NCBI RefSeq assembly: GCF_022045235.1
Contig: NW_027266319.1
Location: forward strand, 40,486,001 to 40,550,000
Direction: 5' to 3'
DNA length: 64,000 nucleotides
Source: Haliotis cracherodii
Lineage: Eukaryota
Shown: positions 16,442 to 61,158 of the stretch, piece after piece
Position numbering within the stretch: position 1 is the first letter of the stretch
How the letters are laid out: each line of letters starts with the position of its first letter
Notes under the pieces: generated by a model
Told to the model about the DNA's origin: nothing
Database searches by the model: none
What the model saw: the letters and a program-made list of their open reading frames with translations, nothing else
Program-made: the position numbers and the translations under genes

Positions 16442-19005
16442 TTTGTGTTTACGTACTAAGAATACGAAACCAGTTATTGCATCAAATGGTTTTGGCTTGA
16501 GTAGAGTGTGGTTTGAGAACGACAATGCGGCCCTCTTCACAGTTTCCACCAGAGGCACACAAAAAACCGTTCTTCTTAACAAACACACTGACACCACACA
16601 GGCACACAAACCACACCTACAGACACCAAAAAGTGAAAATACATATATAATTCACAGACATACATGCTCGGNNNNNNNNNNNNNNNNNNNNNNNNNNNNN
16701 NNNNNNNNNNNNNNNNNNNNNNNNNNNNNNNNNNNNNNNNNNNNNNNNNNNNNNNNNNNNNNNNNNNNNNNNNNNNNNNNNNNNNNNNNNNNNNNNNNNN
16801 NNNNNNNNNNNNNNNNNNNNNNNNNNNNNNNNNNNNNNNNNNNNNNNNNNNNNNNNNNNNNNNNNNNNNNNNNNNNNNNNNNNNNNNNNNNNNNNNNNNN
16901 NNNNNNNNNNNNNNNNNNNNNNNNNNNNNNNNNNNNNNNNNNNNNNNNNNNNNNNNNNNNNNNNNNNNNNNNNNNNNNNNNNNNNNNNNNAAAATGTGTA
17001 TGATTTTAAGCTCAAGTGTATCAATTAGCTGCTTCAGCGTTCGTGCACTTTAAGACCACATACAAACGTTAAGTCAATCACAAAGTCACTGAAACGTGGA
17101 AGTTATTTACATATCAAAGACGGCAAAATGAAAGGCATCGCTCTGTCACTCATGCAACCATTGCTGTTGTTTTTAGTCAAGCATTTACCATCCGGGAGAT
17201 AGATAACCGTTGTCTGACAACTTTAGAACTTCTGGTGAAACATGAACATGAATAGTGAGATAGAACAATTGAAGGTAAGAAACAGGATTACATGTACTAT
17301 CGATGCATATAACATAGCTCTAGAGTATACATCCTATTTGCCCCTATGCAATTTTTGTTTCTTTGTTTGTTGTTTAACTCCGCACTTAACTAAAACAGTA
17401 TTCCATTTATATGACGGCGGTTTGAAAATAATCGTGAGCATCGAACCATGCAATTGGAATACGATGACATGCATCACCCGAGTCAGCGAGTCTGACCATA
17501 AAATCCCGTTAGTCGCCTCTTAGGACTAGTTTAGTCGCCTTTTACGACAAGCACGTGTTGCTGAAGACCACTTCAAATCCGGATATTCAAACCTTACAAA
17601 ATATGGAGTGGAGTTTGCTCAGCCATAGTGATGGCACCCCACACCATAACCGATTCAGTAAATCTGTCATGACGTCTCAGGTTGACATTGACTTGACATT
17701 CATTTCGACGTCGCAGCACACGGTCACGCCTATCAGTAAGTGAGATAACATCGGCATTTTTTCAGCCATATAGCGACGAGACCCAGTTGATACATACACA
17801 GTTTGATCATTTATACAGAGTAACATTCAAAAACAATTTATGAAACCTATTTGAGGATACCATATTAAAAAAATTATGAAACATATTTGAGCATAACAAT
17901 ATCATGTGTACAGTTTTTCACGCCTGTCAAGTAAATTGGGACTCATCTGAAAACGAAATACGTGACCAGTGACGATCAACAGTTTCGACGTTGTGTACAC
18001 CATTGACGTTGGATGGCAATGTGACGATTTGTGAAGGGCGTCACAACACGTGGCCGTCGAGCATAGAGATGAGCTGCATGAAGACGATTTCAAATCGTCT
18101 GACCCGTAACTCGTACTCAAGTAGCCCGATGAAAGTTTGCGGCTATTGATTCGCCGTTTGAGCTCGATTTCGTAGGCCTGGTTTCGGATTAATCGACCCT
18201 TTACTGTTAGAGATGCCCTGGGGCGTTCTGAACGGAGTCGTTCGTGTTAGGTTTGTTGGTACCTGTTCCATAGTCTGCTGATCACAGAGAGTGTAAAACA
18301 TTGCGGAATGGCAGTAACAGTAGTATTGTAGTTCGTGGAAGTAAACATACAGTACAAGGATAGTAGATTGATCTAATTCAGCGTTATAAATATTTGAACT
18401 TGGCATTAAAACATGTTTACGATAACAAGATGTTTCTCGGATGACACATAAGTAGGATTGGAATGTTGAGGTTCATTGAAAATAGCTTAGGATCCTTAGT
18501 AACCAGGATCTGTGGTGCCGATTTCTTTGTAGGTTAAGCACCATAAAAAGTGCCTTGAGCGCAAAAACAAGAAACTTGGTCTCTATGAAATTAGATAGGG
18601 TAAGCTGCCCCGAGGAGTCATTACAATATCGATTATGACGCTATGTATTAACTTGGATGCACGGGAGAGGGCTGGGCGGTTCGTGATGGATATAGGACAC
18701 CAAGGCTGTTTTAGACACAAAAGACTGTATTTCTGTTGGTCAAGCACATGGTCAACACTCCTGGCTGGAGGCTGCCATTTTGGTACATATGGAAATAAGA
18801 AAAGGGTAAAGAAAACGAGATCGAGTATAACATAAGTGGAATTGAATAACGAAACGAAATAATAGACATTTGGGCACAAAAGGCTTTCTGACATAGTACT
18901 CATTACTTCATCTGTTATTTCTGTTCAAACAATTGTAGATAACATGTTGTTGGTTCAAATACATACATTTGCTGTTGTCTGACATTTCTATTCTTGTTTT
19001 TGCAG

Positions 19006-19520
19006 ATCAAATGAAGAAGACGACACAATGATAAAGACGACAATACGTTGATGAAAATGGCAACACTATGATGAAGATGACAACACCATGATGAAGATGG
19101 CAACACTATGATGAAGATGGCAACACTATGATGAATTTGGCAACACCATGATGAAGATGACAACACTATGATGAAGATGGCAATACCATGATGAATATGA
19201 CAACACTATGATGAATATTACAACACTATGATGAAGATGACAACACCATGATGAAGATGGCAACACTATGATGAATATTACAACACCATGATGAAGATGA
19301 CAACACCATGATGAAGATGGCAACACTATGATGAATTTGGCAACACCATGATGAAGACGACAACACCATGATGAAGATGGCAATACTATGATGAATATGA
19401 CAACACTATGATGAATATTACAACACTATGATGAAGATGGCAATACTATGATGAATATGACAACACTATGATGAATATTACAAAACTATGATGAAGATGA
19501 CAACAGCGTGATGAAGTTGA
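19006..19520 (+). repeat. 20-bp minisatellite (caacactatgatgaagatgg), ~25 units, in the apparent 5' leader of A1
   Basis: Exact 20-nt period across 19021-19500. Starts right after the splice acceptor and runs into the A1 start codon. Confidence 0.95.
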
Positions 19521-20566
19521 CACCATGCAGCAGACATAGAAGAAAGAAGGTACTTCTGGCAACAGTACTTCTGACCTGCTTCTATGCTTTTCTTCTGTGG
19601 ATCCCCCGGGACAGGAATGAAGCCAGTAACAACAGTAGCCTTGGCACAGTAAAAAAAGAGTCACATGGAAAGAATAAATTCATGGGCCTTTATTTCAAGA
19701 AACTGCTGAATCTGATCATGACTTGGTTCATTATCAAGAACGATAATCAATTGGACAAACTGTTGAACAAACATAGCTTCGTGTTTGGTTTGAATTCGAG
19801 ACAGTGTCTCAATGTTTCTATCGGTGTTTTGATTGTTGTACATTCTGATCCCAGCAATGTTGAGAAACGAAGTGTTATACGCAACACATGGGGATCAGTG
19901 ACCACGTTTAGAAATACGCCAGTTGTGTGTGTGTTCATGATGGGAGAACGAAACAACATTCAACAAGAAATTGTCCAAGAGTCCATATTGTTTGGGGACA
20001 TTGTTCAAGGGAATTTTAAAGACAGTTACAAGAACTTAACGTATAAACATGTAATGGCTCTTCATTGGGTAACTACTCAATGTCATGACGTGAGAACTAT
20101 TGTCAAAGTTGACGATGATGTGTTTGTCAATATTTTCAAATTGGTAAACTTTTCGCTAACTACTGGACACTTGCACAACAGTTTGTACTGCACAGTTTTA
20201 CAAACTGGTCGGCCATTTCGAAAAGAAGGGAAATGGATTACCAGTAGGGAGGAATATCCTTTCGAATTTTTCCCCACTTACTGTGAAGGTATGGCTTATA
20301 TTTTATCAGTGGATGAAGCAAAAAGGTTGACGAAAGCGTCTGAAAATATGCGATTCTATTGGATAGATGATGTTTACGTCACAGGTATTCTTGCACACAA
20401 GGCTGGAATTGGTCACACACAGTTGCTTGAAACACACAAATCTGCCAAAGCAGGTTTTTCAGACAATGACTATGAAAGTTCAGTAAATGATGTCCTCTTT
20501 TTCCATGATTTCAAAACGTCAGCCTCTTTATGGGAAAAGGTCAAGTTTGAGTGCTGTTCAACCTAG
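19511..20566 (+). CDS. GT31 beta-1,3-galactosyltransferase-like protein, copy A1 (~351 aa, type II membrane protein)
   Basis: ATG at 19511 (the ORF track starts at GTG 19508). Basic tail RHRRKK, TM VLLATVLLTCFYAFLLWI, and GT31 motifs VVHS..N..KR..IR.TWG, GDIVQGNFKDSYKNLTYK, KVDDDV (DxD), YP..FFPTYC.G..Y and IDDVYVTG. Branch point CTGAC 18979, pyrimidine tract and AG at 19004-19005 upstream; AATAAA at 20708. Confidence 0.92.
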   Translation: MKLTPCSRHRRKKVLLATVLLTCFYAFLLWIPRDRNEASNNSSLGTVKKESHGKNKFMGLYFKKLLNLIMTWFIIKNDNQLDKLLNKHSFVFGLNSRQCLNVSIGVLIVVHSDPSNVEKRSVIRNTWGSVTTFRNTPVVCVFMMGERNNIQQEIVQESILFGDIVQGNFKDSYKNLTYKHVMALHWVTTQCHDVRTIVKVDDDVFVNIFKLVNFSLTTGHLHNSLYCTVLQTGRPFRKEGKWITSREEYPFEFFPTYCEGMAYILSVDEAKRLTKASENMRFYWIDDVYVTGILAHKAGIGHTQLLETHKSAKAGFSDNDYESSVNDVLFFHDFKTSASLWEKVKFECCST

Positions 20567-20981
20567 ATGTGCTGTGGCTCACTCGTTGGAAAATATTTTA
20601 TGATAAAAAGAGTATTGCGTTTCTTCTCACTGGGAAGGAAATCGACAACCGTGGTTTTCTCAAAAACTCGTAATACCTTAGATTCTTCAAAATTTCATAA
20701 GACAGACAATAAATCCTTAGCATCATCAGGAATCTTGGGGAAACGGTGGACCGATAGTATGTATGCTAATTGTTTTGTGTCATTAAAACCGATCTATAAT
20801 GCAATAGAAAAACAGATATGAATACAGGGTATGATGTCGAAAGAATGTTGCTTCATATAATCATTTTCAAATCGAATCACCACACGAAGGGACAGTATTT
20901 TCCAGATTTATACATACTCGGTAATGGAAGTGTAATCCGAGGTCCAAGTGACCAACGTTGGAAGTGTACCATATGCATATA

Positions 20982-22334
20982 TACTGAACCGCAAAAGAAA
21001 CGTCACCATGGATAGATATATGAGAAACCTTATTTGTCCAAACACTGTAAACATACTTTGAGACATATTAAAAAGATGAAACTTGGCAAAACTGATCATC
21101 TAGGTTGCAATTTAAGTGTCAAATGTTCTTAAAGTGAAACACGACACTAATCACAAGTCAGTATCTCGTGTGTCTGCCATGTGCATCGATACATGGAATG
21201 GATGAGGCGGTTGATGAAGGCCATAGACACTTGAGCCCACACTCTGAAGAACGCCTGACGCAGTTCATCTGCAGTTGTCGGCCTTGATCGGACGTTATTC
21301 TGCCGTCTTTGAATCTCGTCCCACAGGTGCTAAATGGGATATAAATCGGGACTGAGGGCAGGCCACTACATGGTTCTGATGCAATTCTGCTGGAGGAAGA
21401 CTTTTGTTGTGTGTGGGCACGGGCGTTATCATGCTGAAACTCGTGGTTGCGGCGACGTGCCAAAAGTAGGTATGGCGTGTGGTCTACTGACTTGATCAAT
21501 GTATCGAATTGCTGTGACACCATTGCCTCTCCCTGGACCGATGTTCTGGAAGACCTCAGGGCCGACCCTCTGTGCAAGACCAATTCAACCCCACACCATG
21601 ATGCTTAGACCACCCCACGAATCTCTCTCAATAACACAAGCATCCGGATGACGTTCGCCACGGCGTCGCCAGACTCTCTCACTTTGCCATCTGCTGTTGA
21701 GATACAGTGCCGGCTCTCGTCTGAGAAGAAAACTCTTCTGCACTGCTAGTGGCGCCAATGCTGGTACTGTGTTGCCAACTGAAGACGGTCCCGGCGATGA
21801 CGTGGTGTCAGAATGGGTCCTCGGTGTGCCCTATGACAGTGGAGGTATATTCTCGACAATCGTCGATGCACGGTGTACGCACTAATATGTCGCTGGTGTG
21901 TCCCCATGGTCTGTCGAGCTGTTTCCGTTGGTCATCTGTACTGTTGGTGGTCTAGTACCGTGCTGGAGCCTGACTTACCTAACTTACAATGTATTGGCTA
22001 CTTGCCGGGCGGTTTGTCCAGCTTGCAATCGTCCAAGGGCTTGGTGTCGCTGATTTCTTGTCAATCTTGGCATGTGGTAGCAGCAATTCAATAGCGAATG
22101 AATGTTATCAGATCTGGGTGGATTTTTATAGGAACTCATGATCACGTGCATCGGGTTACCATGGCCGTTGCCGTGATGCATTTGGGCGATCGGTTTTTTT
22201 GTCATCTGCTGTGGGTTTTTTTCCGGACAAGGTGATGTTAAATTTGAGAAACTTTGACAAAAATTACCCAGATATATAAATGACAACTTTTCATGCAATG
22301 TTACTTGGGGTGACGTTTTTCTTGCGGTTCAGTA
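20982..22334 (-). mobile_element. Tc1/mariner DNA transposon, family X, decayed
   Basis: TIRs TACTGAACCGCAAAAGAAACGTCACC / GGTGACGTTTTTCTTGCGGTTCAGTA flanked by TA. Minus-strand transposase pieces MPRLTRNQRHQALGRLQAG and FQHDNARAH. Confidence 0.92.
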
Positions 22335-24710
22335 TATTACGCAGGTCATGAAATAAAAGTGAGTATGAACATACATGACAGAGGTTGGCAGATGTGGTCA
22401 TCGTTTTCATGTATTTTCTGATGAGCGCAGTAATCATAAATGCTGATCATATATTACCTTGAAATCCAGATGACAAGGTATTTATTTATCCCATGTTTCA
22501 TTTGTTTCTAAAAGTTCGGTCATAGGTAAATGGAAGATTACCATAATATATTGGTAATATAACTGCATCATAGTGCCAGCACAGGATCCGTAGTGTGCAG
22601 AAACCACGTCAGTGACGTGATTATTGTAATAAGTAACACATTGTAGGAGTTGTACTTGGCAGTTCTGCACTGACCGTTACCACAGATCATTAAAGTTTCC
22701 AGTATAAGCTGAGTATTTATTTGTTAACCCAGTGTGTCCATAACTTAAACGCATTTTGATGCCTAAAGTTGTCTTGAATTGTCCAGAATGAAAACGTTTT
22801 AGATTATCAAAGCAATTTGATACAATATTCAGATAATCAAGTATTTAATGTATACATGTGTTTGGATTTGACGATATTAACAAATAAGAAAATACGATTG
22901 ATCACATGAAGAAGTAAATGGTATCACACAACGATCGACATTTCTTTTAATCCTTTGTTGTCACACCTACCTACGTTATCCCACTCATGTATGTCCTTGT
23001 TGTTACTGTTAATCCTCCACTTGCTATATATATTCTGCACTATGTCCCTCATTCAGTCTTGCTGGACAACGGTATAAGGATCTATACCGAAACGTCGCTT
23101 TTTTACAGTATTAAAGAAGTTGTTATCCATAAAAAGTGTGTCTATCTTGTCATCCGCCAACTTCTAAGTAATGCCTATCAAACAAGTTATTTCTTTTTCT
23201 GACTTAGGCTTGATTCTATTTCCCCACCTGGTTCTGCAGGAGATTGATATAACGATTGTTAGAACAGAAGGTATCGTATTGACTGCAAGGCCACTATCGG
23301 CAAATGATCATGCCTTTGAAAAACAACGCCACTCATTCCAAAGGTTTGTTGTGTCAGGCATATTAACAGCAGAGAGCACTTCGGCAATGACCGTGTCTAG
23401 GTTTAGGTTCCATATGATTTCTTTGGTACAGTGTTTCCACTAAAATGCGACCGTCTCTGTGGTCAAGTGGTGAAGCAGAGAGCGGTGGTTCCGGGGATCC
23501 GCATCATGCAAAAGACGTTAAAAGCTAATACTTGTTGATATCCTGCCTGGAGTTCGGCAGTTAGGGGATAAAACAAGGACTGGTCGGCTCGGAGTCAGTA
23601 AAATTGTGTCTCTCTGGGGTATTCATGTTAAACAGCGGCATGGTATCTCAGTGGGCCAGTACAAGCAGAAACTCGGCATTAGGCCAGGATTTCGAATCCT
23701 GCCAACCTACAAGGTGCAGATTTGCGTCCCTTGGGCACGCCAGAAACCTATGATTGTGGGTTCGAATCCCGGTTCGCCCCGATTGTGTTTCTAGGTTTGT
23801 CAGCACCATACCCGTGCTCCTGGGTTTGACCGAAGTGGTAAACGTCTGAGATCTGCATCAGTTCGGGCTTTCCTCCCACATTAAGCTGACACGCCGCGAT
23901 ATAACTTGCATACTTTTAAAAGTGGCGTTAAACCCAACTCACTCACTCACTACAATTACAACACACACACAAGTGCATCAAACGTTGCTATGTAAGTGAA
24001 ATAATCTTGAACGCGACGTTAAACCTCATTTCACCTCACCTCCAACTACAAAGTCTAATCCTTGACACCAATTAGTGGAGCAGAGTACCCCTTTAACGAA
24101 CATTTTACAGCTGAAACAAAGATCACATTGTGCTAAAATGTATGAAATATCTTTTTTATCCGATAATGCAAAATAAACAAATAAGATGACTGTTTTTATA
24201 TCAGAAACCGGGTTGACTCTATATACTAGTGTCACCGTGAGTCCCTATATATAACATGGGGAAAGACAGTTCTCATTGACCCAGTCTCAATGTGCTCCCC
24301 TGATGAATAGATAATTATATCGTCAACTTGAACGTAGATGTGAAGTGGGCAAACAATAGAATTTTTAAACATTAACCGGAAAAGGACTGTTTTGTTATGA
24401 CAACGATCGTCTCAAGGTTCTTTGGTGTCTGTTACGTTTCAATCGTATACCCATGTCATAATATTGATTTGTAAAAGTGAATGTATAATACCTGCACATC
24501 ATTCTACTGCTTCACTGTCCAGATCGTATTACACTGCAAAATAAATCAATCAACTCCAGTTGTAATGATAATTTACATAAATGACACGATTGTTCAGTTT
24601 TACCATGCTTCTTTCTCTGAATATTGTAGTTAACAGTTGATATAGCGATTTATTCCACCAACTTCAGGACACTGTCGCTATGCTACGTTGGCAGGGCTCG
24701 GAACTACATA

Positions 24711-26140
24711 CACTCTTCAAAAAAGGAAAAGCACAGGTAGTATGCAGTTCATTGAGCCTGACTACACAAAAAATCCGGTATATAAATTGCATATTGTTAT
24801 TGGAAAATGTTGATGGCCTGATATTCGACAAACGGTGCGTCAAAACGCAGCCATTGTCGATTTGCAATGTCTTAAACGGCATTGCTTTCAAACTTGTTCA
24901 CAAATGTTATGGAGGAAAACAGTAAAGCAAAATGCAAGTGCTAGTGATGGCATTCGTCACTCGTGGTAGAAGTTATAAAAAGGCAAGCGGAACCAATAGT
25001 CAACATTTTTCAAGTTCGAAAATGCCAAGACTCAACGCTGCCGATCGGAACATCGCCACAGGACGTTTCCAATGAGAGGAATCGCAGTTTTCTGTTGCAC
25101 GCCACTTCAACGTCCACCACCGCACCATTTGCCGCCTTTGGGACCGATACACACAGTTCAATTCGACTGCAGACCGTCGGAGAACCGGCCGACCAAGAGT
25201 TACCACGCCTGCACAGGATCGCTACATTCAACTGTTCCACCTACGTCATCGCAATGTCACAGCTACGGAGACTGCAGGACGCACCCCTGGTTTGAGGAGG
25301 ATATCGGACCAGACTGTCAGCAACCATCTTCGCGGGCTGGAATCCTACCCAGAAGACCAGTTGTCGTTCCTGTTTTGCAACATATCTATCGACAGCGACG
25401 CTTGCGTTGGTGCCATACCTTACAGCCTTGGAAGACGAGTGTGGTTTAGCGATGAATCACGATTTCTTCTTCACCGCCGAGATGGAAGACAACGTGTTTA
25501 TCGTCGTCACCTCACATTGGGTACGTGAATTCGGCAAATTCGGTGGCGGTAGTGTCATGGTGTGGGGGCCATATCCAACAACAGGAGATCTGACTTGGTT
25601 GTGGTTCAGGGAAATTTGAAAGCAAATCGCAACATGAATCAAATTCTTCAACCTCACCTTCTTCCAATCATTGACTGCTAGAGGGAGCTGTTTCGACAGG
25701 ACAACGCTTCACCGCACACAGCTCGTGGCACGGTACAATACATTCAAAATGCCAACATCAACGACTTGCCCTGGCCGTCGAAATCTCCAGATCTCAACCC
25801 AATCGAACACCTCTGGGATGAAGTCGATCGACGTGTACGTCAACGTGAGAACACGCCGCAGACACTCCCACAACTGGCCAACGCATTAGGAGCAGATAGC
25901 GCAGCATTCCGCAGGACAGAAGTCGTACACTTATCCAGTCAGAGCCGATGAGATGCTGAGCCATGATTGCTGCCTAGGGCGGTCACACGAGGTGCTGAGT
26001 TCAGCGCAACCTTGTGGCCTTATGTGACATGAAAATGAACAGTTGTCAGTGCCTTTGTACAATGACGACATGTGACTATCAAAATTTCGTATTTGTATCT
26101 ATGATATTAAATTAAATATATCGACTTTATTATGTACAAT
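24711..26140 (+). mobile_element. Tc1/mariner family Y, decayed, right TIR missing
   Basis: TA|CACTCTTCAAAAAAG end. Transposase from 25022: MPRLNAADRNIA, VWFSDESRF, FGGGSVMVWG, WPSKSPDLNPIEHLW, in shifting frames. Confidence 0.9.
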
Positions 26141-26683
26141 ACGTTTACATCATAAATAATAGTTTGCATTTTTCAATTTCAAGTTGCACTTGTGCATGTC
26201 TTCTGTGGTTACATCGAGCCCTGGTTGGTGTAGGCTTAGACAATTTTGGAGAACTGTGACATCGGATATAAAGTTGACTTTGTTGGTCTCAAATCCTGAA
26301 ACAGTATGTGTGCAACGTGGGTTATCTAGCAGTAATTAAAACAAACCGACATACCGGCAGGTGCACTATACAATTATATTTCATAGCAAAATTACCTCTA
26401 AGTTCTATTTGTAATAATTTGAGATAGTGTAACACTTTGAGCATCAAGAATTGAAAGTGCGTTGGCAACACCAACCAAAGAAATGTGTCGGTACCGCAAC
26501 ATGTCAACATGTACACAATAATTCTCAATATATTTCTTGGATATACTAGTTTTTGCCAAATTTGCCCCAGTGTTTTCATGAGGTTATACATGTTGCGTGT
26601 GCACTAATTAGGCATATATGAATCGGTGGAATAAAACTTTATCGTGAGCATGTTGTTTTCATGTAGACTGACTCATATAATAG

Positions 26684-26925
26684 TGAGTGAGTGAGTTGGG
26701 TTTAACGCCGCTTTTAACAGTATTCCATTTATATCACGGCGTGGCAGTTTAATGTGGGAGGAAAACCCGAATTGATGCAGGTCTCAGACGTTTACCACTT
26801 CGGTCAAACCCTCGAGCACGGGTATGGTGCTGACAAACCCACAATCATAGGTTTCTGGCGTGCCCAAGGGACGCAACTCTGCACAGCGAATCGCGGCGCC
26901 TTAGACGACTGAGCCACCCGTGCCC
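26684..26925 (-). mobile_element. Family 4 tRNA-headed SINE with a 16-bp TSD
   Basis: TSD ctgactcatataatag (26668-26683, 26926-26941). Head gggcacgggtggctcagtcgtctaaggcgcc and (ACTC)n tail. Relatives at 23705-23951 (+) and ~14555-14655 (-). Confidence 0.88.
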
Positions 26926-29479
26926 CTGACTCATATAATAGGAAGGAAAATTTTCCTTTATATATTGCCTTTATTCGATATTTTTTCATTAATTCTTCTT
27001 GAAATCGCACCCTTTTCTCCATGCTTTTGAGATTTTTGTAGAGTAGTATTTTGGTTCCAGGGGTGAGCAATTGAGACTCAGAGTGAAATATTAGATGGTT
27101 TTCGGCACCCTAAAAATGGAGAAAAGTTCACATCTTCCCTAGGCAAGTGTGTTAACTAACAACGAGAGTCCTTTCAACCCTTGCCGAACTACGCTGGAAT
27201 TTCGTGGCTCGATCGTAGCACCAGCAGTGGCTGTTACGAGTTATGTCCCTTCTATATCCCTTCTATTAACAAATCAGATTCCACCTCTAACATCATTTGC
27301 TTCAAACAAAATGGCGGCGCCCAGTCAAGATGATCTGATCGATAATCAAGATACATATTGTATCATATATAACATAGCTACGCGATAAATCGCGAAGAAC
27401 AATGAAGAACGAAGCGTGGTTAACGTTTATTTGACGATGAAACATTGTTCTAACATGACGCCATTTCTGGAGATTCGAATATGCGCTCGCGACTTGATGA
27501 CGTCATATATTTTTGGGAGGGAAGTGTCAAGTATTAAAGTTGTTCCCTATAGATATTGCAGGGCTACGCAGGTAAGGGCATTCATCGAACGATCGCATCC
27601 AAAAGTGGGAGCGATATAACAATCTGTATCAGGAGAAAAGGTGCAGATAATCGATGTGTGGATTGTGAGAATATCCGGGAAATACCAAACTTAACCCACC
27701 TGTTCGTAAAATGGACTTGTCCAACATTCCCTAAGTCGGATTCTGTTCAGGGAGACATCATTATCAAAATGTGGGTAAATATTTTTAAAGCTTGTACATT
27801 GTACATCAACATCCTGAGGCTGTACATAATGTTGATATCTCATATAAGAAATAAACGACTCATGGTCGTTGTTTTTCGTATAATAAAACGCTGCAGAGAG
27901 AATAAACCACTCGGTACTGTGTCCCTCATGGTTTATTCTCCCTGCAATGTTTTACTGTACAATGAACAACTCCCACTTGTGGTGTAAATATGCACTGAAA
28001 AAAAGCCAGCGATCTGATTGGCTATAAATAAAATATTTTTACCTCTAGGTCGTTTGCAAAATGAATGGCGCGACTTTTCTCAGTGCGGGGTATGTCAAGG
28101 CCATGGTCGTCCATCGCGGACTGGTCACGGCAAAGGACTTATTGAGACGAATAATTGAACGTAAATTCATTATACCATGACGATGGGCGGGCTGGCAGGT
28201 GCCTTCGATTGAACGTGTTTTGGCGCTTGGTATTTGTGTACACGATCCAATAAACAAAAACAATTGGTAAGTTAGCGGTAATATTCTGAGCAGGGATTTG
28301 GGTTCGGAATCACGATATTTTGAGCTTCTGAAGAGGCTAGCTCCAAAAGTACGGCTTCGAATTCTTCATCTATGTCTCACTGTATAGCTAAATGTATAGC
28401 TAAGCTGTATGCCTTTGGAAGCCATTTCCTTCTTTATTCATCTTACATGGGAAATGGGGGCTTCGGAAAAATAGCAACTTTATTAAAGAGAGAATCTAGA
28501 TTTCATAACAAAACATAAGAAAGTTATCTATAATATCACAAAGGATCTACCAGCATTGATTTCATCATATAGTAGGACCATTATTATTCTCTAATTATTG
28601 GACAAATTTTCTTTATTTTTTTACCAAATAGTATCTTTGAAAAAAACAGACTTCCAAACTGCAATTATCTCAGTACGGATGATTGCTGACTCGAAGTCTG
28701 CCTGAACCACTTCTTGGGAAAGTACTGTACCACTTCTTGTTCTGATAATGTTTTTAACATCCTAAAAAACCTTACATCAAGATCAAGATCATTGTTCTAA
28801 AGACCCCGAGCCCATATACAAAACAAGAGTAGAAAATGATCATATCAGTGAGTACAACACAGCTGTAGACACGTGCTGCATTCAATACATCTGTGCAGAT
28901 AATGTTACAAAGTGGGTGTACACAATTATTTTACGAAGTGACGTCACGATACTATAAAATTCTTGAGCAGACAAAGTGCATGATGAACAATTAGTGCTAA
29001 CCTACGACTTGTTTTCCATCATTAGAATTCAACAGAGATTTACATGCATACAAATTTTACAACGCAGGTATTTCTGTGGGATATTTGCTTCCCTTAAATC
29101 AGTATATACAGTACAAACAAGCAGTATATGAAATTTATCCTCTAAATAAGTTTGACAGAAAGGGCACAATCACACTGGCTTCGGTATAGAACGATGTCGT
29201 CCAATTTTAGCTATTATTTCAGACAATCTTCAATATGTTGGTTGGTTTGATTGTTGTTTAACGCTGCACTCGGCAATATTGCAGCTATATGACGCCGGTC
29301 TGTAAATAATCGAGTCTGGCCTAGACAATCCAGTGATTGCCATCATGAGCATCGATCCTCGCAATTGGGATACGATGACATGCATCAACCAAGTCAGCGA
29401 GCCTGACCACCTGATCCCGCTAGTCGTCTCTTACGACAGGCATAGTTGCTTTTTAGGTCAATATGCAATGCGCAGAGAT

Positions 29480-30640
29480 TTGCATGTTATAACATTTAAT
29501 TACAATTCAGGTTCAATTAACGATTTGGAAAAAATGTACATAGCATTTCTAGAACTGTTTTCAAGTGTCGATCTCCAGTTCTGCTCAAACATGATATCTT
29601 TTGACTTTCTACGAAATAATCTTAAACAATCCTGTTTTACCGACACCTGGATACAACAACAAATTACCGAAACCGTGATAAAATAGCATATAACGAATAT
29701 TTGATGCCCATGTTGTGTACCCATGTCCAGATTAAGTTGCATTTTGTATGCCTTTTAAGGCAGGCGGTCTTCATGTATTTCTAAAATTTTAAACCAGTAT
29801 TTAAAACAACGAATATATGCATTAATATTCATCGAATATCTTCCACATTCGCTACAAATTACACAGTGTGGAGCTGATATTCCTGTCTTTAAAAACTGTT
29901 TACATGCATATAAATGTATCTTTAGTATTGAGTCCTTATTTCAAACCTCAAAGCACTGAGCCGTATAAAAGGATCGAATGTATTTGGACATCATATAGCT
30001 TAATATAAACTACACGTGGAACAGGTTCTTATTTGGATCCAGTGGTAAGTAACATGATCATTGCTTTCTTGGCCCTTACAGCTAAATTTTGGACAGTCTT
30101 TCTTAAGTTCAAAGTCTAAGTAAATAGAATACCCAGGTATTTGTTAAATCCATCTGCAAGACAAACTGGGGTGTTTTTTGTAAAACCAGTTTTCGGACAT
30201 AGCGAGTAGATTACCTCTCCTAAACACAACCACATTTGTTTTATCTAGGTTTACTGTAAGTTTGCATTTTGTAAACTTTTAAAACCCCATAACAGTATCT
30301 GATACAACTATACCATCATTAGCAAACAATAGCATGAGTCCAAGAGACGTTCAAATTCTTAAGAGAATAAATTACATAAATTACATCAATAATTAATTTC
30401 ATCAGCACTGATATTGGCATCTGGAATTGATCGATCAATAGTAGTATAATGCTCATGATAACATAAATGTATAGATGTATCTGTATCAGAACTGTTTAAA
30501 TTCAACAGTGTGGAATAAATATCAACAATATGGAAGACATCTTTGAAATGTGTAAACCATTCAGTGAGACGAATTTTGCAATTGGTTTGAGCTAATATTT
30601 TGAATCTCTTTCCAAAATTGTGTTGGGTTACCCAGACATT
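29480..30640 (-). mobile_element. LINE reverse-transcriptase fragment (CR1/L2-like)
   Basis: Minus-strand LMLLFANDGIV (decayed FADD motif) at ~30310-30337 and NKYLGILF at ~30122-30145. Confidence 0.6.
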
Positions 30641-32804
30641 TGCATAATATATCAGCTTGCTTTCCGTGAAAGGCGATCATGCTTGTAAGAGGTGACTAAC
30701 GGGATCGGGTGGTCAGACTTGATGACTTGGTTGATGCATGTAATCGTATCCCAATTGCGTGGATCGATGTTCATGTTGTCAATCACTGAATTGTCTGGTC
30801 CAGACTCGATTATTTACAGACCACATATAGCTGGGATATTGCTGAGTTCGGCGCTAAACAAAAAAACAAACAAACAATAAATCCTTGTTATTGTGAAGGA
30901 ATGCGATGCTGTTGAATGTTGAATGTCTTATGGTCATTCTATCTGATCATTCTCTGATGATGGTCTGGTTTAAGGAAGTTATTCAATGGTTCGTTTGTCA
31001 TTTTAGGGAGGGTCGTGTTTAGGAGCAAAGTGGCCAGTCAGGCAGTTAAACACTCACGCCTAGCCTGACTCTTTCGTCATTTGGATACAGTACTAATAAC
31101 AAAACAGTAATAATGACGAGCTGTCTACGTGGACACTTATCACCTTAACACACGTGCCAACCGTGCATGACCCTTCATAAACATTTAATAAGCACATGCT
31201 CAAACAAGCATCCTCTTCGTCAGTATTCTGGAATCAATCACCATTGAAATATTTAGAGGATGAGTCTTCTAGTGATAACTTCTTTGAGAGGCATTTAGCA
31301 AAGTTGGAATACTAAGTAGGGATAAGATATATGGATGAACGACTTCTTTATTACAATTGGGAGCGACGTTTCGATGTAGGTTCTAGTGAGGCGTAGAAAT
31401 GATAAGCACCAACGGTCACTGAATCCAAAGCAGTAAGATAACACCTGTTCAACTACTGCTGGACCGGAGGGGGGAGATAGATGCTGGGTGGAGTTGACCT
31501 GCAAGGTACGGGCATCTCGGGGGCAATTCACAGTGGACTTCTACTGGAGATGTAGCAAAGGAGTGAATGATATTTTACGCCCCTCCGAATATATCAGCAA
31601 TGTCACGGCGTATGGCGGCGTGGAGGAGAAGTATTTGCACTTAGACTGACATCAGCGTGACTTGGGTGCAGTGTTTATGTAGTCATCACTTTGTCTAACG
31701 ACAAGCCTGCTGGATATCGACCGGCGTCAAATCAGACATACAGGTGACGCTTCACTGACAATATTCAGGGTGTGAGGAAGTGTAAGTTAATTACCCACAC
31801 TTCAAACTACCATGGAGTACTCAAACGATCGATGCGGTGGCCATGTATGTTTTGTTTTGTTTAACAGCGCACATGATAGTCTCTGGCATATTGGACAATT
31901 CAGCAGAGGAGGGACACGGTGGAAGGAACAGGCATGTTAAGTACAAACTTCTCAACTCGTTTCTAAGTATTTCATTTACAAACATTTCAGTCCTCCAAAT
32001 TATGTATTTTAATATCCGAACGATAAACAGTATGGTGTAACTAACAACTGTGTTGTTAGGTATTGGTAGTCAACGACTTTTTTCTATTAGGTAATCGCAA
32101 TATGTTAGTATATTTGGAATATCCAGTTAGGATTTAGCGGCAGAATAGATCCTCATTACCCCGTGCTGTCGTTAACACCGACTGTGTGACTTTGCCAGTT
32201 ATGTGCCACCGTGTCCCAACATCGTTTTGCCTGGCATAGGCTGTTGCTGTAGCTTAAATATGCGCTATAGAACAACATGATATGCTCTCATTTAAATTTG
32301 GGCTTCACTTCACTTCACAATATACTGACTCCGAGCCGACCAGTCCTTCTTTTAACCCCTTCATGCCGAACTCAAGGCAGGGTAACAACTGGTACCTTTA
32401 AAAATCTTTTGGTATGACGCGGCCGGGGATCGAACCCCGGACCTTCCGCTCCCTGTAGCCACGTTGTTAATATTTACAATAAGGTGTTATTTAAGAAGCA
32501 CCTAACTATTTCTGTCTTTGAATATTTAAAGAGAACTGAGGTTTGGTGAGGCTGGAAATGGACCCCAAAGTCTATCTAGAGATTGATATATCGTGAAAAT
32601 AGGAATGTACCCAAATTCAAAACTTCGAATTCCGTCATGCGAGTTTGAAAGGTTACGGTATCTGGTTGCTGTCATTCATTTTACAGATATACAGACGTGT
32701 TCCACAGCTAGAAACTCTTCACTCTGTAACGTCAGTGTCATCGAAATAAATATATATTTTCATTTATTAACAGATGAACATGATCACAGTTGCATTTTCC
32801 ATTT

Positions 32805-33480
32805 GATAAGTACATCCCTATCATGATAAGAACAACCCTATCAATAAGTACATCCCTACCATAATAAGTACATCCCTATCATAATAAGTACATCTCTATC
32901 ATAATAAGTACATCTCTATCATAATTAGAACATCCCTATCAATAAGTACATCCCTATCATAATAAGTACATCCCTATCAATAAGTACATCCCTATCAATA
33001 AGTACATCCCTATCATTATAAGTACATCCCTATCATAATAAGTACATCCCTGTCAATAAGTACGTCCCTATCAATAAGTACATCCCTATCAATAAGTACA
33101 TCCCTATCATAATAAGTACATCCCTATCTTAATAAGTACATCCCTATCAATAAGTACATCCCTATCAATAAGTACATCCCTATCATAATAAGTACATCCC
33201 TATCATAATAAGTACATCGCTATATATAAGTACGTCCCTATCAATATGTACATCCCTATCAATAAGTACACCCCTATCATAATAAGTACACACCTATCAT
33301 AATAAGTACATCCCTATCAATAAGTACATCCCTATCAATAAGTACATCCCTATCATAATAAGTACATCCCTATCATAATATGTACATCCCTATCAATAAG
33401 TACATCCCTATCATAATAAGTACATCTCTATAAAAAAAGTTCATCCCTATCATAATAAGTACATCCCTATCATAATAAGC
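32805..33480. repeat. 18/20-bp minisatellite
   Basis: aataagtacatccctatc with or without an extra at, ~35 units. Confidence 0.95.
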
Positions 33481-33982
33481 TCAAATCTAGAGCAAGGCTA
33501 CCTGTAGATTTAACTGCGCTGAATTGAATTTGGGACCGACCTCGCAGCATGAGGTTTCAAATTCTACAATCTAGCTCACTGTTGTCCGCAAAACTTTAAA
33601 AACACTCTCTCAGTTGATTTTTATGGGTTTCCTTCATTCTCATCGAGTATTCCCTCACACACTTTGACTAATGTAGTATCCGAAACCAATGATTATACAT
33701 ATATTATTACAAAATGCCTACCAGTAATGATTTAGAAACAAGTTATTTTCCATTAATATTAGTTTCTGCTGTACTGCGGCCGTCAAATAAGCTGTTTCAG
33801 TAGGAAGGGGATATTGTGATTTGAAACCTCTAATTGGCAAATCACGATCGAGTATTTTCCAAATACATGTACATTCATTCTTTGTATTTCTAGTTTACAG
33901 GCACACATAGATACTAGTACACAAGGCACGTATCTCAGAACATGCGTCGTTGGACAACAGCCGCACGAAATCAATATCTAAA

Positions 33983-35044
33983 ATGGCAGTCGCCTTCAAG
34001 TACTGGAAATTCAAGAAACGTGTTTTTTGCCTTGGCACGCTGATACTAATGGGTATCTATTACGGAGCGTTGGAGTTTCGTCATTTGCAATACCGTACAC
34101 AGGAGAGGTACCTTGCAGGCAGGCTTCATTTAAGACCTCGGCTGGAAAAGAAAAGATTCGTCAACCTTTATTTCAAGAAACTGCTGAATCTGATCATGAC
34201 TTGGTTCATTATCAAGAACGATAATCAATTGGACAAACTGTTGAACAAACATAGCTTCGTGTTTGGTTTGAATTCGAGACAGTGTCTCAATGTTTCTATC
34301 GGTGTTTTGATTGTTGTACATTCTGATCCCAGCAATGTTGAGAAACGAAGTGTTATACGCAACACATGGGGATCAGTGACCACGTTTAGAAATACGGCAG
34401 TTGTGTGTGTGTTCATGATGGGAGAACGAAACAACATTCAACAAGAAATTGTCCAAGAGTCCATATTGTTTGGGGACATTGTTCAAGGGAATTTTAAAGA
34501 CAGTTACAAGAACTTAACGTATAAACATGTAATGTCTCTTCATTGGGTAACTACTCAATGTCATGACGTGAGAACTATTGTCAAAGTTGACGATGACGTG
34601 TTTGTCAATATTTTCAAATTGGTAAACTTTTCGCTAACTACTGGACACTTGCACAACAGTTTGTACTGCACAGTTTTACAAACTGGTCGGCCATTTCGAA
34701 AAGAAGGGAAATGGATTACCAGTAGGGAGGAATATCCTTTCGAATTTTTCCCCACTTACTGTGAAGGTATGGCTTATATTTTATCAGTGGATGAAGCAAA
34801 AAGGTTGACGAAAGCGTCTGAAAATATGCGATTCTATTGGATAGATGATGTTTACGTCACAGGTATTCTTGCACACAAGGCTGGAATTGGTCACACACAG
34901 TTGCTTGAAACACACAAATCTGCCAAAGCAGGTTTGTCAGACAATGACTATGAAAGTTCAGTAAATGATGTTCTCTTTTTCCATGATTTCAAAACGTCAG
35001 CCTCTTTATGGGAAAAGGTCAAGTTTGAGTGCTGTTCAACCTAG
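33983..35044 (+). CDS. GT31 beta-1,3-galactosyltransferase-like protein, copy A2 (~353 aa)
   Basis: ATG in aaaATGg at 33983. Tail KYWKFKKR, TM VFCLGTLILMGIYYGAL, and the same GT31 motifs as A1. Near-identical to A1 from 34165 onward. Candidate acceptor tttgtatttctagtttacag at 33881-33900. Confidence 0.92.
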   Translation: MAVAFKYWKFKKRVFCLGTLILMGIYYGALEFRHLQYRTQERYLAGRLHLRPRLEKKRFVNLYFKKLLNLIMTWFIIKNDNQLDKLLNKHSFVFGLNSRQCLNVSIGVLIVVHSDPSNVEKRSVIRNTWGSVTTFRNTAVVCVFMMGERNNIQQEIVQESILFGDIVQGNFKDSYKNLTYKHVMSLHWVTTQCHDVRTIVKVDDDVFVNIFKLVNFSLTTGHLHNSLYCTVLQTGRPFRKEGKWITSREEYPFEFFPTYCEGMAYILSVDEAKRLTKASENMRFYWIDDVYVTGILAHKAGIGHTQLLETHKSAKAGLSDNDYESSVNDVLFFHDFKTSASLWEKVKFECCST

Positions 35045-35769
35045 ATGTGCTGTGGCTCACTCGTTGGAAAATATTTTATGATAAAAAGAGTATTGCGTTT
35101 CTTCTCACTGGGAAGGAAATCGACAACCGTGGTTTTCTCAAAAACTTATCAGTGGATGAAGCGAAAATGTTGACAAAAGCGTCTGAAATACGCGATTCTA
35201 TTACAGTGAAGGTTTGAATATGAACGCAATGTTCTATCATGAATTAAATAATTGGACGTCATTATGGCGGATGTGTTTTGACAAAAACGTTAACCTGTAA
35301 CGAGTATATATAGTCATGTGGTATAAGTTCCAACACCCATGCAGCTATTGCATCATGGCTTTTCCTTGAAATGCATAATATTCTCCGAAAAATCCCAGTG
35401 AGAATACTCATGACAGTATTATTCATGACAGTATTATTTCATTATATTACATAATACAGTATTTTTTTCATTTTCAAACGTTTGAAGGAAACGTTAATAC
35501 ACGCATATATTTAGATAATTGCATGTCGCTGTTTATTTGTGTATAATGTGACAGAAATCATAATGATATTACTACACTTTTTACACATTTATTTGTCTGA
35601 TGATCCTCTTGTGAAGCATGTCAAGACTCATGATGAAAACAAGGCATTCCACAGTTTGCTTAAACGAGTCATGGATATGGGTCATTTTCTCAATGTCATT
35701 GTTTATTTTGTTGATGGTTCTGTACTGCTGACGGTAAGGAAATAAATGTCAACCAAGCGAGATGCGATA

Positions 35770-46689: not shown

Positions 46690-47311
46690 TAGATATATTC
46701 ATATACATAGATGACGACAATGGGTAAATATGTATTCATATACATAGATGACGACAATGGGTCAGTATATATCCATATACATAGATGACGACGATGGGTA
46801 AGAATATATCCATATACATTGATGACGACAATGGGTAAATATACAATCATATACATAGAGGGTAACACAGGATGAATGTACATTAAGATACATAAAGGAC
46901 GATACAGCTAGGGTAAATATACATTCATATACATAGAGGATAACACAGGATGAATATACATTAAGATGCATAAAGGACGATACAGCTAGGGTAAATATAC
47001 ATTCATATACGTTGAGGATAACACGGGATGAATATACATTAAGATGCATAAAGGACGACACAGCTAGGGTAAATTTACATTCATATACGTCCTCATATAC
47101 GTAGAGGAGGACACAGGGTAAATATATCTTCATTTACAAAGAGGATGACATAGAGCAGTCATAACTTCATTTACATAGAGGACGACACATCGTAAATTAA
47201 GATTCATATACATAGGGGACGGCACACAGTAAATATTCATTTATCAACATAGAGGACGACAATCTTAAATATATGCAAACCCTAATGCATAAATTCATTT
47301 ACAAAAATATA

Positions 47312-48750
47312 CACCCTTCAAAAAAAGAAACGCACAGGTAATATGTAGTTCATTGAACCTGACAACACAAAAATTCCGGTATATAAATTGGATATACACT
47401 CTTTAAAAAAAGGAACGCACAGGTAGACTTTTAGTAATTTTATTGTAATAAATAAAGTCGATATATTGAATTTAATATCATAGATACAAATATTAAATTT
47501 TGGACCTCAATAGTCACATGTTGTCGTTGTACAAAGGCATTGAAAACTGTTCATTGTCATGTGACATGAGGCCACGGCTCTGCATCTCATCGGCACTGAC
47601 TGGATAAGTGTACGACTTCTGTCCTGCGGAATTCTGCGCCATTCTGCTTCTAACGCGATGGCCAGTTGTGGGAGTGTCTGCGGCGTTTTATGACGTTGAC
47701 GCACACGTCGATCTAGTTCATCCCAGAGGCAAGCCGTTGATGTTGGCATTATGCAGGTAGTCTACTGTGACACGAGTTGTGTGCGGTGAAGCGTTGTCCT
47801 GTTGAAACAGCTCCCCCTGGCGGTCAATGATTGGAAGAAGGTGAGGTTGAAGAATTTGATTCATGTAGCGATTTGCTGTCAAATTTCCCTGAACCCCAAC
47901 CAAGTCAGATCTCCTGGTGTTGGATATGGCCCCCCACACCATGACACTACCGCCACCGAAATTGTCGAATTCAGGTACACAATGTGGGGCAAAACACTCA
48001 TTTCGACGACAATAAACATGTTAAAGAAGAAATCGAGATTAATCGCTAAACCACACCCATCTCCATTTTGTCAAATTCCAAGGCTGCAAGCATCGCTGCC
48101 GATAGATCTGCTGCAAAACAGGGACGATAACTGGTCTTCTGGGTCGGATTCCAGCCCGCGAAGATGGTTCCTGACAGCCATGTCCGATATCCTCCTGGAA
48201 CCAGGAATGCGTCCTGCAGTCTGTAGCTGTGGCATTGCGATGACGTTGGTGGAGCAATCGAAAGTAGCGATCCTGTGCAGGCTTGGAAACTCTTGGTCGG
48301 CCAGTTCTCTGACGGTCTGCAGTGGAAATGAACTGTGTGTATCGGTCCCAAATGGTGCTGTGGTGGACTTTGAAGTGGCGTGCAACAGAAAACTGCGATT
48401 CCCTCTTTGGATACGTCCTGTGGCGATGTTCCGATCGGCAGCGCTGAGTCTTGGCATGTTCGAACTTGAAAAATGTTGACACTTGAATGACAAATTATTG
48501 GCTTATGCTTGCCTTTTTATAGTCACTACCACGAGTTACGAATGCCATAACTTGCACGTGCATTTTGCTTTACTGTTTTCCTCCATGACATTTTTGAACA
48601 AGTGTGAAGACAATGCCGTTTAAGAAACTGCAAATCGACAATGGCTGCGTTGTGACGCACCGTTTGTCGAATATCAGGCCATCCACATTTTCCAATAACA
48701 TATATCCAATTTATATACCGGATTTTGTGTGCGGTATGTTTTGAAGAGTG
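47312..48750 (-). mobile_element. Tc1/mariner family Y copy with a compound left end
   Basis: TIR-like ends at 47312, 47397 and 48750. Transposase motifs MPRLSAADRNIATGR, VWFSD, MVWGAIS and FQQDNASPH. Confidence 0.9.
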
Positions 48751-48902
48751 TACATAAACATCCGATCTATATCAGATTGTATCTATAATTGTGTTTCTTC
48801 AGATGGAATCCTTTTTGGATTGAGGTCCGTGAGCACCCCGAAGACTTGAAGACTTAAAGACGTACTCAACTCATAGGACTTGACATGACCAGAAACTGAA
48901 CA

Positions 48903-50233: not shown

Positions 50234-50689
50234 TTCCCTGTTGATTATTGATCAAGGAGACGTTCTTGAATGAGCAGCTTGAATGAGTCGTCATCAAACA
50301 CAAGCGAAAAGAATGTTTTTAGATTATTTGATAGTATCCTTGCAATCTAACACAGGCCCAGCCTAATGCGCAGCAGTTAATGCATTTTAATGTGCTACAT
50401 CCAATGCATCCAATGCACCCCAATGTGCTACGGTTAATGTGTTTTAATGTGGCAGTCAATGATCTTATACCAGAGGTGGGTCATAGACCGTTCCCTGAGA
50501 ATACCACAGTGTAACGCGGTCATAAGCCCTGTGAAGATACGTCAGTGCACTAGGCTTATATTGACATACCGACAAGTCCTATGCCATGTATTGACATATC
50601 AACAGGGTACATCATGTCCTGTGCTATAGATTGACTTGGCGCCTCGTGTTGTGTGCTTAATCTTCACAGATGCCTCGTGTCCTATGCCA

Positions 50690-50905
50690 TATGTTGACAC
50701 ATCGACATGAGACATGGTTACAAAGTCATATATTGACACATCGACAAAAGACATGGTTTGCTAAGTCATATATTGACACATCGACATGATACATGGTTTG
50801 CTAAGTCATATATTGACACATCGACATGATACATGGTTTGCTAAGTCATATATTGACACATCGACATGATACATGGTTTGCTATGCCACATATTAACACA
50901 TTGAC
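50690..50905. repeat. 40-bp minisatellite downstream of B1
   Basis: ctaagtcatatattgacacatcgacatgatacatggtttg. Confidence 0.9.
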
Positions 50906-50939
50906 AGAGTACCTCGTGTGCTTTGTAATACATTGACAA

Positions 50940-61018: not shown

Positions 61019-61158
61019 TACATAAACATCCGATGTATATCAGATTGTGTTTCTTCAGATGGAATCCTTTTTGGATTTAGGTCCGTGAGGTCCCCGAAGG
61101 CTTGGAGACTTGAAGACGTACTCAACTCATAGGACTTGACATGACCAGAAACTGAACA

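Follow-up and report, generated by a model that had tools for sequence, protein, structure and literature searches.

Results

A tandem pair of GT31 genes

The window analysed here, a stretch of 64,000 nucleotides of the abalone Haliotis cracherodii (assembly GCF_022045235.1, contig NW_027266319.1, positions 40,486,001 to 40,550,000, numbered from 1 below), contains two tandem GT31 (beta-1,3-galactosyltransferase-like) genes, A1 and A2, followed by two further members of the family.

19511 to 20566, plus strand: A1 coding sequence, a 351-residue GT31 enzyme whose N- and C-termini are still of the ancestral A1 type; this gene donated the C-terminal tract
33983 to 35044, plus strand: A2 coding sequence, a 353-residue chimera with an A2-type N-terminus, then an A1-type core and C-terminus
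48903 to 50233, plus strand: A3, another type of GT31 paralogue, whose frame is shifted near 49725 by a net loss of 25 bases
61159 to 62520, plus strand: A4, an intact GT31 paralogue of 453 residues, segmental duplicate of A3

The GT31 family is large in abalone, with 93 PF01762 matches in this genome. A1 and A2 each scored 169.5 bits against Pfam PF01762 (Galactosyl_T, curated cut-off 23). Both carry the DxD motif (D203 and D205, invariant in 77 aligned sequences) and the xED catalytic-base motif (D288 and D289, nearly invariant in 77 sequences), and in the alignment both motifs line up with their human equivalents. As human beta3GalT5 and B3GNT2 are outlined in PMC11969544 and PMC7948508 (CAZy GT31), A1 and A2 share with them PF01762, the fold, DxD and xED and a K-W loop motif, a likeness at the level of sequence and model, with only about 24% identity. 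The modelled protein was H. rufescens A2, whose core is 97% identical to the A1/A2 core of this genome. The model (pLDDT 92.1) adopts a GT-A fold that matches 8zwp with Z 31.5 and an rmsd of 2.1 Å over 256 aligned residues, and 8tic with Z 29.6 and an rmsd of 2.8 Å over 274 residues. Both tail types contain a short strand followed by a histidine (H334 in A2 and its equivalent in A1), lying, by sequence and model position, roughly where B3GNT2 His376 would be expected. We assign A1 and A2 to the GT31/Galactosyl_T family, with a putative beta-1,3-glycosyltransferase activity.

Anchors and upstream regions

The two genes begin with different segments.

19511 to 19686, plus strand: A1-specific segment comprising a cytoplasmic tail, a TM segment at about residues 15-31 and the stem
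33983 to 34164, plus strand: A2-specific segment comprising a tail, a TM segment at about residues 14-30 and the stem; single copy in this genome

At the protein level the two N-termini are 14% identical (8 of 59 residues). As DNA they are still homologous, with a global score of 71 against 35.9 ± 9.5 for shuffled sequences, reached by none of 500 shuffles; this homology rules out the acquisition of an unrelated N-terminus by domain shuffling. Both are ordinary type II anchors, in which a single hydrophobic 17-mer (mean KD 2.3 in A1 and 1.9 in A2), placed at an equal position, follows a tail with 5-6 basic residues. The open reading frames run uninterrupted across the N-terminus/core boundary in both genes, and a contig from X14 (a run taken to be RNA by guess) spans 33892-34277, that is 112 bases beyond the A2 boundary. 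Separately spliced or alternative N-terminal exons, a possibility raised in the preliminary description of this DNA, are thus ruled out. Further upstream, three features were delimited.

19011 to 19522, plus strand: minisatellite with a 20-bp unit in 25.6 copies, a putative splice acceptor (AG 19004-19005) on one side of it and the A1 start on the other
32316 to 32451, no strand assigned: high-copy interspersed repeat with 2935 candidates in this genome, tRNA-SINE-like in our reading
32392 to 33893, plus strand: putative A2 5' UTR intron, GT...AG after a pyrimidine tract; one contig, depth 5.2, organism C

Ahead of A1, positions 19007-19510 hold 63 ATGs, each of which starts a frame of 4-7 codons. 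On the A2 side, the repeat likely supplies the end of a non-coding upstream exon (GT at 32392), and one X14 contig matches the repeat at 27 of 30 bases at its loose 5' end.

A near-identical block shared by A1 and A2

19687 to 20668, plus strand: shared block, copy 1, with the core, the A1-type C-terminus and 102 bases of 3' UTR
20708 to 20713, plus strand: A1 AATAAA, 40 bases past the end of the shared block

The preliminary description had reported 19687-20668 and 34165-35146 as nearly identical, and we found exactly 5 substitutions in 982 bases, ungapped at an offset of 14478 (19919 P/A, 20057 A/S, 20119 silent D, 20458 F/L and 20494 silent V). Along the same diagonal, identity falls to 16-40% beyond the block (50-base bins). 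Within this genome, third codon positions are 95-100% identical inside the block (per 20-codon bin) versus 20-40% outside; since these positions are homogenised too, protein constraint is not the cause of the core identity. Past the stop codon the block continues for 102 bases. The A1 AATAAA lies outside and was therefore not copied into A2. The flanks, earlier described as unrelated, are so at a distance, the farther regions of about 1 kb upstream and downstream giving no blastn match, but immediately 3' of A2 two segments (35146-35202 and 35205-35300) are GT31-related. The divergence between A1 and A2 is 0.5%, close to what separates alleles in the flanks (0-3 differences over about 1080 bases).

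An assembly collapse had also been envisaged beforehand. In runs X5 and X6 (organism A), the block was recovered as one contig with the same 982-base limits, both A2 junctions and about double depth (58.2 versus 28.3/28.0 in X5, 40.1 versus 16.7/17.3 in X6), so that the two copies are not a collapse. The junction between the copied tract and the relic described below was present at single depth in these two additional individuals, and the intact joint from 34899 to 35204 was absent from them. This intact joint was present in run X7 (organism B), an organism in which a collapsed contig (34182-34895) covers the conversion zone. Contigs at the junctions share only 30 letters with the block (bridging rule 31), no record covers a whole locus, and the read evidence bears on the A2 locus.

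A displaced C-terminus 3' of A2

34165 to 34899, plus strand: ancestral conversion zone, the core from the stem end to just beyond the catalytic-base helix, homogenised within each species
34900 to 35146, plus strand: lineage-specific tract extension, an A1-type C-terminus and 102 bases of A1 3' UTR placed in A2
35146 to 35202, plus strand: relic 1, old A2 core equivalent to 34781-34838, with a 1-base deletion; meets the tract with 1 base of microhomology
35205 to 35300, plus strand: relic 2, former A2 C-terminus and stop, now non-coding 3' sequence; single copy in this genome

Relic 1 is a 91% copy of the internal core (20303-20360 / 34781-34838) and keeps the ancestral base at all three sites that are derived in both A1 and A2 (equivalents of 34798, 34810 and 34827). 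Relic 2 is preceded by a deletion of about 108 bases, which removed the catalytic-base motif. Of its 31 residues, 29 are those of the A2 tail in H. rufescens. It clusters with A2 tails in the C-terminal tree (100% bootstrap), a grouping unaffected by one stray residue included beyond the relic's stop, and is homologous to the A1 C-terminus, though diverged from it (score 45 versus 21.2 ± 7.1, reached by 1 of 500 shuffles). Its 31 codons contain just 2 changes, one of them still polymorphic. In human B3GNT2, the part that aligns with the lost A2 tail is the acceptor-binding HV3 region. A search of this genome that scored the best candidates only found no second, intact A2-type copy. A2 is a mosaic whose C-terminus was copied from A1, and by these alignments its 3' flank (35146-35300) carries its own displaced C-terminus, which had been missed earlier.

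Cores group by species, ends by paralogue

Quartets and partition trees were computed on protein sequences of three species, the DNA comparison being that of this genome only; the H. rubra A2 annotation lacks the N-terminus. Core quartet sites (by species/by paralogue/other) were 38/0/0 for H. rufescens versus H. rubra, 36/0/0 for this genome versus H. rubra and 4/0/0 for this genome versus H. rufescens, this last count being weak (p about 0.06). The same counts were 0/45/0 for the N-terminus and 0/13/0 for the C-terminus (H. rufescens versus H. rubra). The core tree gave species clades with bootstraps of 77-78, A1 and A2 cores being identical within species at 240/242, 240/242 and 229/232 residues, while the H. 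rubra core is 83-84% identical to the others. H. rufescens and H. rubra A2 possess their own C-terminus of about 50 residues, 20-24% identical to that of A1. These comparisons describe a domain-limited concerted evolution, with a core grouping by species, exempt ends grouping by paralogue, sharp boundaries and homogenised synonymous sites.

Since the core follows the species and both termini follow the paralogue, conversion appears old and recurrent, and the ancestral pair distinct at both ends. The preliminary description was right to see old paralogues here. Gene conversion of the catalytic domain also stands, not as one recent event but as a process recurring in each of the three species. 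Its picture of one enzyme with two addresses fails for the ancestral pair, because A2 of H. rufescens and H. rubra has a distinct C-terminus; a fully shared catalytic domain and C-terminus is, as judged by sequence, the derived state of this lineage.

No A2 was found in H. asinina, an absence that is no proof of loss, and searches for further A2 orthologues returned only the gene's own cluster (N-terminus search) and one distant fragment (short-protein search). Among 15 tandem GT31 pairs profiled in this genome, 3 others showed similar mosaics. In the pair L009/L022, the shared patch has residues common to the H. rufescens pair and not to L009 of H. rubra or H. asinina, the latter two species being represented in this comparison by L009.

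Discussion

We consider it very probable that A1 and A2 are ancient GT31 paralogues whose cores were repeatedly converted while their ends stayed distinct, and that A1 overran into A2, leaving a stranded tail. Repeated gene conversion would keep the cores near-identical within each species; it likely begins in the shared core and would normally halt where similarity collapses, on the left in the stem and on the right just past the catalytic-base helix. One event in this lineage likely copied A1 beyond the right boundary, through the stop and 102 bases of UTR, and the copied tract was probably sealed back into A2 out of register, through end joining at 1 base of microhomology. The outcome would be an A2 with the C-terminus of A1 and an old A2 tail decaying 3' of the stop. 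Microhomology end joining as a termination of long-tract conversion is reported in PMC5104497, where copying likewise passes homology; the system outlined there is mammalian reporter cells with a sister-chromatid donor, whereas for abalone we infer the repair pathway and the timing of the overrun, the evidence being a product fixed in the germ line whose donor was a paralogue. The A1 and A2 proteins would now catalyse the same chemistry, each with its own anchor, promoter and 3' end.

Whether the exempt ends matter is a question about function, and we give about even chances to passive boundaries, a reading compatible with the history above: fast-evolving termini would drop below the similarity required for recombination without any selected difference, A2 being a redundant dosage copy. 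Between H. rufescens and H. rubra, orthologous termini indeed diverge faster than the core (59% identity for the A1 N-terminus and 50% for the A2 C-terminus versus 83%), loss of the A2 tail was tolerated in this lineage, and the pattern repeats in other pairs with boundaries elsewhere. However, both paralogue-specific tails go back beyond the split of H. rufescens and H. rubra and have stayed open and recognisable ever since, 60 of 61 residues of the A2 N-terminus are those of H. rufescens A2, and the right boundary falls where the acceptor-binding HV3 region begins.

An unequal crossover could have produced the same arrangement with an unchanged core history, although we find this rather unlikely. 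It would have generated three copies, A1 followed by an A2/A1 chimera and then an intact A2, and a deletion of about 14 kb would then have joined the chimera 3' UTR to the downstream A2 core. This yields the exact order of A2 N-terminus, core, A1 C-terminus, UTR and relic, the cluster is rich in tandem duplication (A3/A4), and prior decay of a dispensable A2 downstream would fit the 108-base and 1-base deletions of the relic. But it requires two events, and the three-copy haplotype is neither seen in this genome, which has single copies, nor suggested by the X5 and X6 depths. Quite unlikely, in our view, is the revival of a dead gene, in which the old A2 had lost its catalytic-base motif through the 108-base deletion, left the conversion cycle and been restored by an A1 tract upstream of the lesion. 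The ancestral states of the relic at 3/3 sites would fit an A2 outside that cycle before a recent copy, as would an A1-A2 divergence close to the allelic one; an old displacement with continued conversion accounts for these states equally well, and relic 2 shows few changes. An assembly artefact (collapse or haplotype mis-join) or alternative N-terminal exons can be dismissed as extremely improbable, for although the two blocks are nearly identical and no single record spans the locus, the assembly holds five fixed differences between them, X5 and X6 independently give identical limits, depth and A2 junctions, orthologous A1 and A2 proteins occur in two other species, and the frames are continuous, the boundary being crossed by the X14 contig.

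Domain-limited concerted evolution is already known, and the abalone pair adds a clean new example, one in which the overwritten part has left a fossil. In Drosophila Cid1/Cid3 (montium subgroup), as outlined in bioRxiv 10.1101/086942, recurrent conversion homogenises the core domain and breaks off at the N-terminal tail; there too the paralogues are neighbours, and tails form paralogue clades and cores species clades. That system is a histone variant with one boundary, whereas ours is an enzyme with two exempt ends, and in one lineage the copying went past a boundary, leaving a relic behind. Methanogen mtrA-1/mtrA-2, in the account of PMC4632066, similarly combine long-lasting conversion of a soluble domain with distinct membrane anchors, but in an archaeal operon and with an anchor obtained by domain shuffling, while the abalone N-termini are diverged homologues. 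Trypanosomatid UGT tandem arrays (described in PMC5853035) are also glycosyltransferase arrays in concerted evolution, with whole-gene turnover and lost orthology in place of domain-limited conversion and stable paralogue-specific ends. Our literature search found no published work on gene conversion within the GT31 genes of abalone or other molluscs, and the word 'galactosyltransferase' is absent from the main text of two black-abalone population papers.

Because the overwritten C-terminus survives next to the gene, the direction, the boundary and the ancestral state are directly legible; the ancestral arrangement itself persists in sister species. Trees and orthology calls based on PF01762 are misleading in the large abalone GT31 family, in which other tandem pairs are mosaic too. 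Four natural proteins, combining two N-termini and two C-termini with one core, offer a ready test of the anchor and of the HV3 tail in GT31. We tentatively suggest, while regarding it as unlikely, that the pair is modular: conversion would share the donor-binding and catalytic core, selection would protect the Golgi anchor and the HV3 tail, and this species would be a natural domain-swap without the A2 acceptor tail, possibly with a revived dead A2. If this modular reading is true, H. cracherodii should miss a glycan product still formed in H. rufescens and H. rubra.

Structure and authenticity of the shared block

A1 and A2 are tandem GT31 genes, each consisting of a single open reading frame:

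19511-20566, + strand: A1 coding sequence, 351 aa, PF01762 169.5 bits
33983-35044, + strand: A2 coding sequence, 353 aa, PF01762 169.5 bits

Diagonal comparison at offset 14478 recovered 5 mismatches over 982 bases between 19687-20668 and 34165-35146, exactly the five substitutions listed in the preliminary description. Beyond this shared block, identity was only 16-40% per 50 bases. The two N-termini have 8 of 59 residues in common and are homologous in DNA (score reached by 0/500 shuffles). Among named proteins, the nearest are 'beta-1,3-galactosyltransferase-like' proteins of Haliotis, and 93 matches to A2 were found in the assembly searched, at E <= 1e-20. Proteins encoded at other loci of this assembly are exact matches to H. 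cracherodii entries.

Region 33600-35600 was compared with 4 of the 17 sequencing runs listed. Runs X5 and X6 of organism A, from a study not marked as the source, each yielded a single contig of exactly 982 bases, equal to 34165-35146, at a depth of 58.2 vs 28.3/28.0 on the flanking contigs in X5 and 40.1 vs 16.7/17.3 in X6, contig depth not being a strict copy number and the whole locus being spanned by 0 records. Both A2 junctions were carried by the flanking contigs, which overlap the block by only 30 letters. This roughly doubled depth, together with the presence of both junctions, shows that the block is not an assembly collapse. A contig of X14 (organism C, presumably RNA; depth 5.2) crosses the boundary between the A2 N-terminus and the core, the catalytic part that follows it (33892-34277). 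The 5' end of this contig is loose, agrees with 32360-32389 in 27/30 bases just ahead of a GT (32392), and is joined to the rest at the AG in 33892-33893; the sole intron indicated therefore lies in the A2 5' UTR, and the alternative of a separately spliced N-terminal exon is refuted for A2 by this continuity. From this one low-depth contig, a high-copy repeat at 32316-32451, tRNA-SINE-like by reading, appears to be the source of the splice donor of the A2 upstream non-coding exon.

Other repeats were observed nearby. A 20-bp minisatellite (19011-19522), whose unit resembles the A1 start-codon region, abuts and overlaps the A1 start from upstream. There are 63 ATGs upstream of A1, each with a frame of 4-7 codons, and the last stop overlaps the A1 ATG; if the minisatellite is part of the mRNA leader, A1 translation would likely be damped. 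Three decayed copies of an element, about 80% alike and Tc1/mariner-like by reading of their translation, lie at 24765-26141, 47441-48731 and 59729-60999.

Probable recurrent conversion of the catalytic core

Both genes are present in H. rufescens (P0077, P0078) and H. rubra (P0079; P0003, annotated without its N-terminus), and A1 alone was found among the matches obtained for H. asinina. Within species, A1 and A2 cores (columns 63-304) are identical at 240/242 positions in this genome, 240/242 in H. rufescens and 229/232 in H. rubra, and H. rubra cores are 83-84% identical to those of the other two species. Core informative residues supporting species, paralogue or other groupings numbered 38/0/0 for H. 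rufescens vs H. rubra, 36/0/0 for this genome vs H. rubra and 4/0/0 for this genome vs H. rufescens, the last being weak alone (p about 0.06). Corresponding counts were 0/45/0 for the N-terminus and, for H. rufescens vs H. rubra, 0/13/0 for the C-terminus (columns 305-356). Third codon positions of the shared block are 95-100% identical between A1 and A2, and the collapsed contig of organism B is restricted to 34182-34895. These site patterns indicate that gene conversion between A1 and A2 is recurrent and limited to the core, and that their split long predates the separation of the species compared. The proposal that old paralogues had undergone conversion of the catalytic domain thus holds, except that the single recent event envisaged gives way to recurrence in each of three species.

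A displaced A2 tail

A2 of H. rufescens and of H. rubra carries its own tail of ~50 residues, 20-24% identical to the A1 tail; in this genome the two tails are identical at 49/50 residues. The former A2 tail persists in the 3' flank, which the preliminary description overlooked: 35205-35300 encodes 31 residues and a stop, and 29/31 residues agree with the A2 tail of H. rufescens. Immediately 3' of the block, core 34781-34838 recurs at 91% identity in 35146-35202, and about 108 bases are absent between this repeat and 35205-35300. Since the former tail is stranded behind an A1-type tail, the tail was copied from A1 to A2. The A1 AATAAA sits 40 bases past the tract end, so the 3' end of A2 remains its own. 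The intact joint from 34899 to 35204 is present in X7 (organism B) and not in X5 or X6. Both X5 and X6 carry the junction between tract and relic, and at least two relic sites, among the matches listed, differ between them.

At 3/3 sites where A1 and A2 have common derived bases, the relic retains the ancestral one; these three changes, lying within 57 bases, themselves form a cluster (P about 0.02). This suggests either that displacement took place long ago, with conversion continuing since, or that the old A2 left conversion before a recent copy. Most likely, a break in A2 would have been repaired by invasion of A1 inside the shared core, synthesis would have continued beyond homology through the A1 stop and 102 bases of its UTR, and end joining would have linked the new strand with the second A2 end. 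One base is common to both sides of the tract/relic junction, and closure by end joining is described for long-tract conversion in PMC5104497. Unequal crossover followed by deletion would leave an identical end product, and we consider it less likely.

Other GT31 pairs

Fifteen GT31 pairs were profiled in the assembly. L021/L027, about 17 kb apart on one contig (C12), are 88-100% alike over some 140 codons as far as the DxD motif and 36-78% alike in the acceptor-side half and N-termini. In L009/L022 (C78), a patch of 240 bases surrounding the DxD motif is 86% alike, the remainder being 50-60% alike. These two pairs and L023/L028 form mosaics similar to A1/A2. Domain-limited conversion is probably a property of the tandem clusters of this abalone GT31 family. 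In L022 the catalytic-base motif is altered. Two further GT31 genes of the A1/A2 cluster, L004 and L005, lie on the minus strand of contig C56, 20-32 kb upstream of the window; they have orthologues among P0007-P0010, and at 50% nucleotide identity show no homogenisation with each other. GT31 paralogues of another type, A3 and A4, lie on copies of one 4-kb segment:

46919-50936: A3-bearing duplicate, with a frameshift in A3 from a deletion of net 25 bases
59192-63229: A4-bearing duplicate

They differ at 20 of 1331 coding bases, do not have the C-terminal His found in A1/A2, and group by species, at 10 sites against 1, when compared with the pair of copies in H. rufescens.

Among the closest known systems to A1/A2 are Drosophila Cid1/Cid3 (10.1101/086942) and methanogen mtrA-1/mtrA-2 (PMC4632066). 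We found no paper on conversion in abalone or mollusc GT31 genes in the open-access literature, including the accessible text of PMC8699351 and PMC5853035. Domain-limited conversion of A1/A2 is well supported, and the stranded tail and natural domain swap add to the usefulness of the case.

Conversion boundaries and function

It is established for other enzymes that sub-Golgi position and partners are determined by the tail, TM and stem (PMC4282539). The two Golgi addresses proposed in the preliminary description may exist, but the N-termini of A1 and A2 are alike in their basic tails and in the placement of the TM segment. A1/A2 termini evolve fast between orthologues, so the conversion boundaries are equally likely to be passive or selected. 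The H. rufescens A2 model (pLDDT 92.1) superimposes on human beta3GalT5 with Z 31.5 and rmsd 2.1 A over 256 residues, and on B3GNT2 with Z 29.6 and rmsd 2.8 A over 274. According to PMC11969544, beta3GalT5 binds its donor and makes most acceptor contacts through residues that precede or fall at the xED motif, placing the corresponding positions within the shared core. The C-terminal HV3 region of B3GNT2 contributes acceptor residue Phe356 and metal His376 (PMC7948508). Phe356 aligns, at the weak end of the sequence alignment and with numbering taken from chain ranges, with A2 residue 317, inside the paralogue-specific tail that begins near residue 307. Judged from this alignment, ancestral A1 and A2 may have differed not only in anchor but also in their preferred acceptors; if so, that difference was lost in the present lineage.
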